DNA of 36,541 bases from an uncultured Candidatus Saccharibacteria bacterium (GCA_964362385.1 CAYIEH010000002.1:1-36541), one strand, 5' to 3'; shown: positions 8,506-32,808, numbered from the stretch's first letter. The notes: generated from the sequence alone by a model not told the origin. Program-made: numbers and translations.

Positions 8506-9342
8506 ATGAACAGATTAACTCAAACAATCTTATACGCCATGATCTTGGCCATTATGGCGGTATTTTTATTTAATGGCCGCGTTGCTCTTGCCGCCCCTGA
8601 CCAAAACGACAAAGCTACAAGCACTCAATTAACTCTCACAAGCGGCACAAGCGATTTTTCCGAATTAGACATAGAATCAAGAAAGCAAATCCTGATAAAT
8701 GTCCTGGAATTTTCAAAAAACGAAGTTTCAAGCCTAAAAGACGGCTTATTGAATTTAAAGCTGGATAATGACACCTGGCAACAGATTAGAGACGAATTCC
8801 TGAATAAACTTTCGAGTTTCTCCGATTATTATCAAGGCGCCGAGGATAAAATAAACAGCACCAGCTCCCCGCTCACGATAGATGATGTAAAATCATTAGC
8901 ATCCGCTCTTAAAGATTGGAGGGAAAATACATACAGTCCGGAGTTGGATAAAATAATAAATATGCTCTTGATTTTTGGAACAGATAATCTTCTAAAAACT
9001 ACGCAAAGCAGATTTGATAAAATTTCTTCTGATGTCAAAAAATTAGATAAACAACATTTTGTAAAAACCGATGCTCTAAAAAATTACTTGTCGCAAGCTG
9101 ATAAACATTTAAAGAACATGAAACGTTCAATTGACGGCGCTAAAAAGATTTTTCTTAAGTCGATTATAAATTCCGATGCCAAAAACACTTCTGACAAAGA
9201 TGTTGTAAAAAGCGCTGATATAAAAACTCAAGAAAATTCACAAGATACAATAAGAAAAATGGCGAAAGATTCATTAAAGGAACTGAAAATCACCTACGAA
9301 ATATTTTTCTCGATGAATAATAATATGAAATCCGGTCAGTGA
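8506..9342 (+). CDS. Secreted hypothetical protein (signal peptide, helical repeat-like)
   Basis: N-terminal signal-like sequence MNRLTQTILYAMILAIMAVFLFNGRVALA. It is the third gene of the sigma/anti-sigma unit. I recognise no catalytic motif. Confidence 0.5.
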   Translation: MNRLTQTILYAMILAIMAVFLFNGRVALAAPDQNDKATSTQLTLTSGTSDFSELDIESRKQILINVLEFSKNEVSSLKDGLLNLKLDNDTWQQIRDEFLNKLSSFSDYYQGAEDKINSTSSPLTIDDVKSLASALKDWRENTYSPELDKIINMLLIFGTDNLLKTTQSRFDKISSDVKKLDKQHFVKTDALKNYLSQADKHLKNMKRSIDGAKKIFLKSIINSDAKNTSDKDVVKSADIKTQENSQDTIRKMAKDSLKELKITYEIFFSMNNNMKSGQ

Positions 9343-9485
9343 AGCTCCACGGCTTTACAGCCGTGGCTTCTCTTCACACGCTTCGTCGGGCGAAACCCTC
9401 CGTAGCTCGGAGAGCGAAGGAGGATACCCTCATTCATCCCCGCCTTTACAGGCGGGGCTTTCTCCGCTTCGCGGAGGAGGGTAAA
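9339..9485. repeat. GC-rich structured repeat element of about 150 nt, copy A (intergenic)
   Basis: Hairpins CCACGGCT-TTAC-AGCCGTGG (9347-9366), CCCCGCCT-TTAC-AGGCGGGG (9438-9457) and ctccgc-ttc-gcggag (9462-9476). It is homologous in inverted orientation to 32287-32437. Both strands are free of stop codons. Confidence 0.7.
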
Positions 9486-9547
9486 ATTCAAGACATAAGA
9501 TTTAAGACGTACCCTGCTGACAGGCAGGGAAAAAAGCAAAAATAAAA

Positions 9548-9568
9548 AACGGTTGAGTGCCGTTTTTT
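9548..9568 (+). terminator. Rho-independent terminator (usable on both strands)
   Basis: aacgg-ttgagtg-ccgtt followed by tttttat. An A-run lies upstream, so it could also terminate minus-strand transcripts. Confidence 0.55.
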
Positions 9569-9651
9569 ATTTATCTTCCAATAGTAATAAAAATAGCCCG
9601 CCCCCTCACCGAGCAGACTATTTTTATTTATAAATACTTTAGAATTCTAAA

Positions 9652-15969: not shown

Positions 15970-17355
15970 TTACTCCGTTATGGCGTTGGCTTCAATTATT
16001 TTTTTGTATTCCAAAGCGCTTGGCCGGATTTTTCGCTCCATTGTTTTATAATTCACTTCCACCAGCCCGAATCTAGGCCAAAAACCTTTATCCCATTCAA
16101 AATTATCCAGCAAAGACCAGTAAAAATATCCTCGCACATCTACGCCCTCACTAATCGCCTTATGCACCCACTTCAAGTGATTTTTTATAAACTTCGCTCG
16201 TTTTTCATCTTTTGCATCAGCTAAACCATTTTCAGTTATATAAATTGGCAAGTTTTTTTCCTTCAATTTTTTTAAATTATGATAAATTCCTTCCGGATAA
16301 ATCTCCCAGCCCATATCCGAAATCCATTTATTTGGATTGCGTACGTCAAAAAGTATAAAACGGCCATTAAAAGGGACCACCTTTATTGTATCTAAAAAAT
16401 AATAATTTAGGCCGATAAAATCCTCAAAGCCATCGGTCCATTTTAAATTTCGCCAGTCTCTAAAATATTGCAGAAGTTTAACAGCCACTTTATCCAAGAG
16501 TGATTTTTTATTAAAAGGTAAATGATAATGAATATTGTTTGCGTTTCCAACCATAACTCCAGGCAATTTTTTATGGAGAAGAAGATAGGTTTTTTTATAA
16601 GCAGTAATAAAATTTTTAAGAACTTTATCAGCTTTAAACAAATTTTTCTTTTCTGGAGGAAATTGACCCATAACGTAAGCAAGTCCTGTGTAAATTGTCG
16701 GTTCATTAATGGGTATCCAAAATTTAACTTCTTGGCCGAGTGTTTGTATTATTTTCCCCGCATATCGCAAAAAATATTCAACTGTTTTTTTATTTTCCCA
16801 GCCGCCGATATCCCGTATCCATAAAGGGTTAGTCCAATGCCAAAGCGTCACAAACGGCTCAATGCCGCGTTTACGCAACGCTTTTATAACCTGCCAATAA
16901 TGTTCAATTTCTTTTTCATTAAATTTTCCTTGTTCCGGCTCTATGCGCGACCATTCAATGGAAAAACGATGAGCGTTGTGACCCAATGATTTGGCAATAT
17001 CAAAATCTTCTTCATAACGATTGTAATGGTCGCATGCCCGGCCGGAAATGTAATTTTCTTTTTGAAGCGGATTTGGTCCGCCAGCTTGCGGATTCAAAAT
17101 ATAATCCGGCCAGTTCTTACGATTTGCCATTTGCGATTTGCTATTTGCCGTTTTATGCTCCCACTCACTCCAATCATTATAGTTGTTTCCCTCAACTTGA
17201 TGAGATGAAGTTGCCGCCCCGAAAAAGAATTTTTCGGGGCGAGCCTCGCCCGTTTTTGATGGGCGGGCCGCTCCCCAATAGAACCCCGAAGGATCCCGCC
17301 TTGGCGGGACCAACGGGGCAGGTCCTTTTGGAAATTCAAATTTATTTTCTGTCAT
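15970..17355 (-). CDS. GH1 family beta-glucosidase with two in-frame N-terminal insertions
   Basis: Motifs GAATSSHQVEG, NEP (PINEPTIYT), ITENG and WSLLDNFEW. Start moved to ATG 17355 (MTENKFEFPKG), just after the stop of the upstream AEC gene at 17357. Confidence 0.9.
   Translation of the reverse strand: MTENKFEFPKGPAPLVPPRRDPSGFYWGAARPSKTGEARPEKFFFGAATSSHQVEGNNYNDWSEWEHKTANSKSQMANRKNWPDYILNPQAGGPNPLQKENYISGRACDHYNRYEEDFDIAKSLGHNAHRFSIEWSRIEPEQGKFNEKEIEHYWQVIKALRKRGIEPFVTLWHWTNPLWIRDIGGWENKKTVEYFLRYAGKIIQTLGQEVKFWIPINEPTIYTGLAYVMGQFPPEKKNLFKADKVLKNFITAYKKTYLLLHKKLPGVMVGNANNIHYHLPFNKKSLLDKVAVKLLQYFRDWRNLKWTDGFEDFIGLNYYFLDTIKVVPFNGRFILFDVRNPNKWISDMGWEIYPEGIYHNLKKLKEKNLPIYITENGLADAKDEKRAKFIKNHLKWVHKAISEGVDVRGYFYWSLLDNFEWDKGFWPRFGLVEVNYKTMERKIRPSALEYKKIIEANAITE
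17121..17148. repeat. Heptanucleotide tandem array (NATTTGC x4) inside GH1
   Basis: Units are gatttgc, catttgc, gatttgc, tatttgc. It encodes ANSKSQMANRK. Confidence 0.8.
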
Positions 17356-31917: not shown

Positions 31918-32808
31918 ATGTTTCTGTTAAAAATTAAAAACATTTCTCTGGACATTCTTTTCCCGCCTCTTTGTCTTGGATGTCAAAAACACCTCAAGCG
32001 CGACAAAGACAAAAGCTATGAATTTCTGTGCAGAGATTGTATGTCCTTAATTAAGATTAATAATACTCTTTTTTGCCCCATCTGCCAATTAAGACTTCCC
32101 GAAAATAAAAAAATATGCAACCACAGCAAAGAAGATTTTAAGGAATTTCCCTTTCTTTTGGGTCCGGCAACCGACTACGGCAATCCCATTGTCCAAAATC
32201 TGATCCATTACTATAAATATAAGAGCTTTGAAAATCTGGCTCCGTTTCTGGGAGAATTAATGATAAATTATCTGAATTTTTTAAATTATCCGCCTTCGCA
32301 GAAGACCACGGGCGTAAGCCCGCGGATGAATACGATAGGCGGATTCTCCACGGCTCTAAGAATGGAGGAAGATGCTTCGGCGGATTCCGCCGAAGAAACG
32401 AAAGATGCCGCTGCTGTAAGCCCATGGAGGCTTCATAATTCTTTCATTTCAAATTTTTCTCCGATTGTGGTTTTTATTCCTCTCCATCATTCACGCGAAA
32501 GAAAACGCGGATTTAACCAGGCAAAACTTTTGGCGGAAATCGTTGCAAAAAATTTTAATCTGGAATTAAAAAATGTTTTAATGCGCGTTAAGAACACTCC
32601 GCCTCAGGCGCAGGCGGAAAACCGCGAAAAAAGGCGAGAAAATCTTTTTGGCGCTTTTACGATAATTGACCCCGATGAAATAAAAAATAAAAATATAATT
32701 TTAATTGACGATGTTTATACTTCCGGCGCCACGATGAGTGAAGCGGCAAGAGTTTTAAAATCGCGCGGCGCAAGAAAAATAATCGCGCTGGTAGCGGCGA
32801 AAGCGTGA
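31918..32808 (+). CDS. comFC: ComF family protein (ComFC, phosphoribosyltransferase-type) with an in-frame GC-rich insertion
   Basis: N-terminal Cys motifs (CLGC...CRDC, CPIC) and PRT motif IILIDDVYTSGATM. The insert is at about 32287-32437. Confidence 0.8.
   Translation: MFLLKIKNISLDILFPPLCLGCQKHLKRDKDKSYEFLCRDCMSLIKINNTLFCPICQLRLPENKKICNHSKEDFKEFPFLLGPATDYGNPIVQNLIHYYKYKSFENLAPFLGELMINYLNFLNYPPSQKTTGVSPRMNTIGGFSTALRMEEDASADSAEETKDAAAVSPWRLHNSFISNFSPIVVFIPLHHSRERKRGFNQAKLLAEIVAKNFNLELKNVLMRVKNTPPQAQAENREKRRENLFGAFTIIDPDEIKNKNIILIDDVYTSGATMSEAARVLKSRGARKIIALVAAKA
32287..32437. repeat. GC-rich structured repeat element of about 150 nt, copy B (inside comFC, inverted relative to copy A)
   Basis: Hairpins CCACGGGC-GTAA-GCCCGCGG (32306-32325) and cttcggcgg-att-ccgccgaag (32375-32395). 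It shares the GGATGAAT core and the terminal motif gctgtaagcccatggaggcttca with the reverse complement of 9339-9485. Confidence 0.7.

Follow-up and report, generated by a model that had tools for sequence, protein, structure and literature searches.

A short GC-rich repeat with hairpin-bearing ends in a Candidatus Saccharibacteria genome, probably non-autonomous mobile DNA with relatives in many bacterial phyla

BOX elements of Streptococcus pneumoniae show the arrangement boxA-boxB(n)-boxC, with fixed end modules, variable internal hairpins and a strong fold, and they lie in intergenic regions; no transposase is known for them. The chemistry of IS200/IS605 elements requires a conserved target tetranucleotide abutting the left end, and these elements, like their protein-less derivatives, the palindrome-associated transposable elements (PATEs), show asymmetric ends with subterminal hairpins at both of them, on one strand, and neither inverted repeats nor target duplications. 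Rickettsia palindromic elements (RPEs) are palindromic repeats of about 100-150 nt in a reduced AT-rich genome, located between genes and also in frame within genes as translated extra loops, and their mechanism of mobilisation is unknown. Miniature transposable elements with inverted repeats (MITEs), such as Correia, are small, non-coding and multi-copy, can donate stops and tails to adjacent genes, and bear inverted repeats at their termini as well as target duplications, which DDE transposases generate. As far as PMC3733652 and PMC6006769 describe them, repetitive extragenic palindromic (REP) sequences and REPINs, which are mobilised by tyrosine HUH transposases called RAYT (TnpA-REP), are short GC-rich imperfect palindromes, dispersed, mostly extragenic and often just downstream of genes, occasionally in frame in genes, without an open reading frame (ORF), covarying and thought to be recognised as hairpins; in canonical REPs the foot of the hairpin bears the tag GT[AG]G or CGTC, and the repeats lie, in the REPtron arrangement, on both sides of their cognate tnpA-REP gene. 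Here, a repeat comparable with these systems is described in a stretch of 36,541 nt (GCA_964362385.1 CAYIEH010000002.1:1-36541; the window), which is contig C2 of an uncultured Candidatus Saccharibacteria bacterium (assembly of 597 kb in 48 contigs, 39% GC, 95% complete). The repeat, named copy A, is located on the top strand as written at positions 9339-9486, next to a gene encoding a 278-aa protein, and is most probably a short protein-less GC-rich element, that is, non-autonomous, REP/BOX/RPE-like selfish mobile DNA mobilised in trans.

Copy A belongs to a family dispersed over the host genome. BLAST finds two further intergenic copies near-identical to it and with sharp boundaries, copy B (C3:15647-15809) and copy C (C26:2278-2444), and these three form subfamily 1. 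Outside the central module, A and B are identical at 56/57 and 62/62 positions. The central module of copy A is 14 nt shorter than those of B and C, and its hairpin, CCTCC-GTAGCTCGGAGAGCGAA-GGAGG (9397-9423), reads exactly as the reverse complement of that module in B, C and the family consensus, as the alignment and the reverse-strand BLAST matches at C26:2346-2379 and C3:15710-15739 show; an inversion of this kind is what template switching produces at quasi-palindromes. With two nhmmer rounds the list is extended by copy D, of subfamily 2, with 151 nt on the minus strand at 32286-32436, where the profile search and protein comparison place it in frame in comFC, as well as copies on contigs C6, C9, C17, C20 (two), C26, C36, C41 and C3, and left-end fragments on C15 and C11. 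The host genome thus contains about 13 elements plus fragments, most of them intergenic, and hundreds of copies are found elsewhere, which bears out the original prediction of a dispersed repeat family from the sequence of this window. The kinship proposed there between copy A and the comFC stretch also holds, since a profile made of the three close copies matches 32280-32436 on the minus strand with an E value of 4.6e-12.

Copy A, of 148 nt, shows a GC content of 59.5%, against 39% in the window and 32-34% in its flanks, and is the highest 148-nt GC peak of the 36.5-kb window. Its minimum free energy (MFE) is -75.4 kcal/mol for the plus-strand RNA (z -6.61), -78.1 for the minus-strand RNA (z -7.48) and -43.4 for the plus-strand DNA (z -7.15), and none of 200 dinucleotide shuffles folds as well. 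The MFE folds of copy A alone reproduce, on both strands, the hairpins that had been described from 9339 on, and the sequence, coordinates and GC enrichment of that block are as first reported, apart from the right end, which moves from 9485 to about 9486 and reads GGAGGGTAAAA. The left-end domain (9339-9377) is closed by the stem GTGAAG (9339-9344)/CTTCAC (9372-9377), which encloses the left hairpin CCACGGCT-TTAC-AGCCGTGG (9347-9366); this hairpin covaries, and the left end RTGRAGC plus hairpin is found throughout the family. Between this domain and the central hairpin there is a small internal hairpin, CGCUU...GGGCG (9379-9392), seen in the RNA fold, which is the weakest part of the structure and is missing from the DNA centroid fold. 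The right-end domain (9425-9483) is closed in the folds by pairing of TACCCTC (9425-9431) with GAGGGTA (9477-9483), and this stem encloses the right hairpin CCCCGCCT-TTAC-AGGCGGGG (9438-9457) and the hairpin CTCCGC-TTC-GCGGAG (9462-9476). The three compensatory pair swaps claimed between two hairpins are confirmed by hand at stem positions 6-8, together with one A.C mismatch. Both stop-free frames that had been reported over this region as spurious exist as well: ORFs of 67 aa on the minus strand (9336-9539) and 68 aa on the plus strand (9339-9545), together spanning 9336-9545, are made by the GC-rich copy A.

The copies share precise ends and a variable interior. In 75-158 copies from many genomes, conservation starts exactly at A-T-G (86%, 89% and 100%) and stops after GGATAA plus A (81%), and the flanks are at background. 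The left end shows RTGRAGC (RTGAAGC) followed by the hairpin CCRCGGGC-TTAC-GCCCGYGG, and a second hairpin lies near the right end in direct orientation relative to the left one. After the right hairpin there is a 3' tail, TCTTCTGCGAAGGCGGATAA(A) in subfamily 2 and CTTTCTCCGCTTCGCGGAGGAGGGTAAAA in subfamily 1 (copies A, B and C), and the 3' ends are fixed as GCGAAGGCGGATAA(A) or the covarying GGAGGGTAAAA form. The interior is made of exchangeable hairpin modules, such as CTTCGGCGGAATCCGCCGAAGC and CCCTCC..GGAGGG. Element lengths range from 46 to 300 nt, with clusters at 46, 49, about 151 and 166 nt; the 46-49-nt form has just one hairpin between its left end and right tail and is itself multi-copy in several phyla, and the minimal unit of about 46 nt reads ATGGAGC, one hairpin and TCTTCTGCGAAGGCGGATAAA. 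The version found outside Patescibacteria begins with ATGGAGCCCCACGGG and differs in the order of its internal modules. Copies that are truncated or have lost internal parts are common, and the element is where many contigs break. In the end profiles there are no terminal inverted repeats, the left ATGRAGC plus hairpin being unrelated to the right-end reverse complement TTTATCCGCCTTCGCAGAAGA; right-end termini read ...GGCGGATAAA and left ends start ATGRAGC.... No target-site duplication with k = 2-5 is found in 75 copies beyond a trivial A, and no copy contains an internal ORF or encodes anything. At locus L181 (about 1582-1620), two left ends lie face to face in a perfect palindrome (ATGGAGCCCCACGGGTGTACCCGTGGGGCTCCAT).

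The hairpins are under structural constraint, as the original prediction supposed, and covary beyond controls. RNAalifold was run on an alignment of 16 diverse subfamily-2 copies, with 500 shuffles and slid-partner controls, and recovers both end hairpins, left and right, as well as a long-range helix, ATCCGCC-GAA-GCA / TGC-GAA-GGCGGAT. Paired cells amount to 95.0%, against 89.4 +/- 0.8 in shuffles and 31-38% with slid partners; cells changed on both sides number 23 against 6.7 +/- 2.1, and the covariation score is 0.214 against 0.112. The observed pairing, double-change and covariation values are each reached by 0/500 shuffles. The long-range helix is invariant inside subfamily 2, and a copy of genome G050 shows ACCCTCC-GAA-GCG / GCGAAGGAGGGT (ACCCTCC/GGAGGGT), so that two pairs differ between subfamilies in a compensatory way; in copy A, TACCCTC is paired with GAGGGTA at this place. 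Right-hairpin stems in 89 copies include CCACGGG/CCCGTGG, CCTCGGG/CCCGAGG, CCCCGAT/ATCGGGG, CCCCGGC/GCCGGGG and the CCCCGCC/GGCGGGG of copy A, and their loops vary among TTAC, TAAA and CAAG.

At two sites where the host carries a copy, related genomes lack it. Five relatives have homologues of the 278-aa protein that stop at the same residue, with a TAA or TAG stop and a terminator directly after it, and the site orthologous to that of copy A is empty in all five. In the host, copy A sits exactly at the stop of the 278-aa gene. The original prediction placed the element immediately after this stop; it does adjoin the gene end, but the TGA (9340-9342) is the element's own, read in its first bases G-TGA-AGC. 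The intrinsic terminator of the gene, at about 9545-9569, is displaced by copy A to about 200 nt downstream of the stop. Stop donation by the element is also found on contig C17 and in genome G058. Copy D is translated on its bottom strand as comFC residues 124-173 (YPPSQKTTGVSPRMN...AAVSPWRLH), that is, 50 extra residues. Among ten comFC genes compared (nine from same-family relatives plus the host's own), the site is empty in eight, with the protein halves abutting, and deletion of 150 nt of copy D restores NYLNFLN joined to NSFISNF. In the comFC of genome G003 (L211), an unrelated palindromic insert, GC-rich, about 150 nt long and containing a perfect inverted repeat of 19 bp (GGCCAGAAAGCCATCTTTC), lies in frame in the same loop as copy D, and this loop thus tolerates insertions and is a repeated landing place. 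A VKOR-like ORF (C20:7457-7918, minus strand) owes its C-terminal 16 residues (LSAFAENHRRKPVDK) and stop codon to the element at C20:7378-7505; the LSAFAEN frame of this tail is also read inside a membrane protein at locus L171. The claim that the repeat can reside in coding sequence is thus borne out by comFC and by the VKOR-like gene, and copies truly inside genes are about three of about 150 (about 2%), in different frames and strands. A 30-nt mini-hairpin is also found inside a tRNA synthetase gene.

The distribution of the family is patchy. BLAST with copy A gives no match in 36 genomes of the same family, pieces 88-92% identical in G050, and weaker matches in three other families of the order. 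Among the 401 genomes compared in the order, 19 contain the right-end 14-mer, with eight matches in the host, six in G040 and five in G058, and the reversed control gives five matches in total; it occurs once in each of two of 41 same-family genomes. A few of the single 14-mer matches in the order are chance matches in tsf or dnaX. One genome per species being taken, an 18-mer marks at least 118 loci in many phyla, some on contigs of megabase size. Among the matches listed, both ends are present in Desulfobacteria/Desulfobacterales (many per metagenome-assembled genome, MAG), Omnitrophota, Scalindua, Pirellulales, Binatia (on a 2.2-Mb contig), FCPU426, Firestonebacteria and Neomarinimicrobiota and, within Patescibacteria, in Saccharibacteria, Kerfeld-, Lipton- and Gottesmanbacteria and Parcubacteria. 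A Bathyarchaeia match and some others, in tsf, dnaX and similar genes, were rejected as elements, being chance 14- to 18-mer matches inside genes. In a Desulfobacterales-type order, around one Desulfobacteria MAG with 18 copies, the 14-mer is present in four of 81 genomes; four other genomes contain 29, 16, 15 and 13 copies. Single genomes with 13-29 copies are thus found in Patescibacteria, Desulfobacterota, Planctomycetota, Omnitrophota, Binatia and others. This rare, scattered and bursting distribution is the pattern of mobile DNA and not of a vertically kept RNA gene. Viral contigs show one match in 2.9 million and plasmids none in 72,556, so phages and plasmids were rejected as the vehicle, the family being essentially absent from both.

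In its behaviour the element is like the REP, BOX and RPE repeats and the protein-less derivatives of IS200/IS605, and it lacks defining features of MITEs, of REPs and of IS200/IS605 derivatives. It shares the properties given above for REPs and REPINs, but its hairpin feet, GRAGC/TCAT in the top and AAGA/GCTCC in the bottom strand, lack a GT[AG]G or CGTC tag; unlike in REPINs, its two hairpins are direct and not inverted, and it has a long conserved 3' tail. The RAYT-like genes of the host and its relatives have no flanking element, Y1 genes do not co-occur with it, and it is patchy across phyla with bursts, in contrast to the long vertical persistence of REPs. With IS200/IS605 elements and PATEs it shares the asymmetric ends, the subterminal hairpins at both ends, the single strand and the lack of inverted repeats and duplications, but it shows no conserved 4-5-nt target at the left end and, among the 118 loci listed and five whole genomes, no parent carrying tnpA. 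RPEs are likened to it by description, a sequence relation not being expected: they share the length, the palindromic form, the AT-rich reduced host and the in-frame residence, but are confined to one genus, whereas the element occurs in many phyla and rarely inside genes. BOX elements are likewise modular, with fixed ends and variable internal hairpin modules, but differ in sequence and host range, being restricted to a few streptococci. Like MITEs, the element is small, non-coding and multi-copy and can donate stops and tails, but a strict MITE is excluded because it has neither terminal inverted repeats nor target duplications. Of the classes first suggested, a REP-like selfish repeat therefore fits, and neither a strict MITE nor, as discussed below, a small RNA module is retained.

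According to the proposed mechanism, the element would spread selfishly, cut and joined exactly at its ends by an enzyme that is provided in trans. Recognition signals would be the hairpins together with the conserved 3' tail, probably on extruded or single-stranded DNA, in the style of HUH-type systems such as IS200/IS605 and RAYT/REP. Asymmetric hairpin ends without duplication would be best fitted by a single-strand HUH-like or a recombinase-like cut; other or unknown enzymes have a chance not far from even, and the single-strand HUH route is possible, if doubtful. The survival of a copy would depend on what its insertion hits. Copy A would have landed exactly on the stop codon, so that its own TGA ends the 278-aa gene and the element lies in the 3' untranslated region (UTR) before the displaced terminator; copy D would have landed in a permissive loop of comFC and, having an open frame, been read through; and the copy on C20 would have come to supply the C-terminal tail and stop of the VKOR-like gene.

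Candidates for the mobilising enzyme were sought in the host and in other genomes. Among the 118 loci listed, the distance between the ends does not exceed about 300 nt, and no full-length parent with tnpA is found there, the metagenomes not having been exhaustively searched; five whole genomes also contain no full-length parent carrying tnpA. A 1.2-kb end-to-end case was rejected as an autonomous parent, since it consists of two separate elements around a membrane-protein gene, and so were sites with only a left end, which are ordinary copies with variant right ends or cut by contig ends. The host contains one RAYT-like Y1 gene, on contig C33 and of 220 aa, with HVH and YIxxN motifs, and 20 Y1 loci in four high-copy Desulfobacterota genomes show no end or hairpin motif. 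A Y1/RAYT partner was rejected, there being neither adjacency nor co-occurrence. In four Desulfobacterota MAGs (G405, G406, G408 and G409; loci L187-L204), proteins of about 330-345 aa with an N-terminal Y1_Tnp domain are present in 5-10 copies each; these are themselves repeated, as many lie at contig ends, and their positions are unrelated to the hairpin element. The host also carries four RVT_1 genes encoding proteins of 313-339 aa (C8:6197-6808, C35:3836-4438, C25:6484-7059 and C4:10759-11328), and none of these reverse-transcriptase genes adjoins an element copy. Since four genomes show about as many left ends as right ends, there is no retro-style 5'-truncation bias, and retro-mobilisation was rejected on both grounds.

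Several points weigh against the interpretation of copy A as mobile DNA moved in trans. An enzyme for its movement was not found in these searches. No element profile match lies within about 1.5 kb of the RAYT-like genes of the host, G050, G058 and G062; Y1 genes are present in five of 16 element-bearing genomes versus 112 of 401 in the order overall; G040, with six copies, has no Y1 match, and G407, with 13 copies, only a sub-threshold fragment. A conserved target tetra- or pentanucleotide is absent at the left end, where the flank is at background and position -1 is A in 49%. As to the insertion bias towards one replication strand that would be expected of an IS200/IS605-derived PATE, neighbouring copies on the same contig show the same orientation in 16 cases and the opposite one in seven, which is not significant. 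Counts of G.T versus A.C are 28 and 14 in one set and about even in another, so no single folded strand is clearly favoured. No close strain with an empty site was found for a comparison of the junction at DNA level, the exact-protein look-up giving only the same population (Hainich groundwater); a metagenome scan with the 278-aa protein found no relative either. Finally, the conservation of the ends across phyla could also reflect another function.

In a rival explanation the copies are genes for small structured RNAs, or RNA modules acting in cis, such as regulators or 3' stabilisers of mRNA; hairpins and conserved tail would then act as RNA, and the host would keep the copies as useful. The very stable and covarying fold and the end sequences conserved across phyla agree with this explanation, as does the location of copy A in the 3' UTR between stop and terminator, where it is probably transcribed. 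REP hairpins can stabilise upstream mRNA, according to PMC3733652. Nevertheless, it is improbable. Neither the window nor any of five foreign loci matches Rfam at the gathering score, and only chance-level matches appear at E up to 10, so no known family explains the element, and this possible refutation of the original prediction falls away. The copies show no orientation preference with respect to neighbouring ORFs (37 versus 47 upstream, 39 versus 48 downstream), have no promoter or terminator of their own, and are absent by BLAST from the 36 same-family genomes, with the 14-mer in only two of 41, yet multi-copy in scattered lineages. Truncated copies, internal deletions, module shuffling and one hairpin inversion occur among them, the comFC copy is translated on the opposite strand, and G.U pairs favour neither strand clearly. 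A small RNA module is therefore unlikely, because orientation bias and own signals are lacking, the bursts are patchy and truncated or internally deleted copies are common.

Spread without an enzyme, in which GC-rich quasi-palindromes are copied by template switching in replication, by gene conversion or through the illegitimate recombination of DNA that has been taken up, has an equally small probability. Enzyme-free copying of this kind has been proposed for mitochondrial GC clusters. The inverted central hairpin of copy A and the perfected quasi-palindromes are typical products of template switching, modules are common to different copies and rearranged between them, no mobilising gene was found, and the host shows a full competence and pilus locus in the annotation of the window. 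Against this stand more than 100 copies in unrelated genomes that start and end at the same nucleotides with unrelated flanks, which indicates site-specific recognition of the ends and not random copying, and the minimal 46-49-nt units, with two ends and one hairpin, which are multi-copy in several phyla. The weakest alternative, that the element is a protein-coding remnant or carrier whose bottom strand encodes a peptide (YPPSQKTTGVSPW...LH) selected as coding sequence, is close to refuted: this frame is the one used in comFC, the main length classes of 46, 49, 151 and 166 nt are all 1 mod 3 (3n+1), and 27 of the 53 full-length copies have no stop in the comFC bottom-strand frame (about seven expected from dinucleotide shuffles), a count inflated because the copies are not independent, but the few copies inside genes differ in frame and strand, the majority of copies are intergenic and lack both a start codon and a ribosome-binding site, and the interior is swapped module by module irrespective of the peptide.

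The interpretation as REP/BOX/RPE-like mobile DNA can be extended to a more far-reaching proposal, which is rather unlikely as a whole: the family may be an undescribed cross-phylum class of hairpin-ended mobile DNA with a minimal unit of about 46 nt and a host or trans-acting enzyme that is not a neighbouring Y1/RAYT transposase, in which the 3' tail would pair with the internal ATCCGCC-GAA-GCA during end recognition and which has perhaps been shaped to be harmless in genes through its open frame and 3n+1 lengths. In the literature, the end sequences give chance matches only, and nothing on the family appears under candidate phyla radiation (CPR) with MITE or REP, an earlier description not being excludable.

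Two other hairpin-bearing regions are present in the window. Between copy A and the terminator, a leftover hairpin, CCCTGC..GCAGGG (9512-9529, plus strand), resembles, by eye only, the module CCCTGCCTTGCCGGCAGGCAGG inside the copies on C41 and at C3:11026, and may be what is left of an older insertion. The window's second GC peak, at 17161-17330, lies inside the N-terminus of a GH1 gene on the minus strand and shows several GC hairpins, such as CCCCGAAAAAGAATTTTTCGGGG and CCCGCCTTGGCGGG; since it has no profile match to the family of copy A, it probably belongs to another hairpin-insert family.

Small selfish palindromic repeats are a familiar phenomenon, and what is notable here is the spread across phyla and the missing mobiliser. 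Neither a transposase in cis nor a link to phages or plasmids was found, which points to a not-yet-identified mobilising activity, and the minimal unit of 46 nt offers a convenient substrate in the search for it. In AT-rich minimal genomes, these elements yield false ORFs, GC peaks resembling RNA genes, contig breaks and altered gene ends or loops, and their recognition improves the annotation of Patescibacteria and of many sediment and groundwater lineages. The near-identical termini in Patescibacteria, Desulfobacterota, Planctomycetota, Omnitrophota and Binatia mark DNA exchange between very distant uncultured bacteria.

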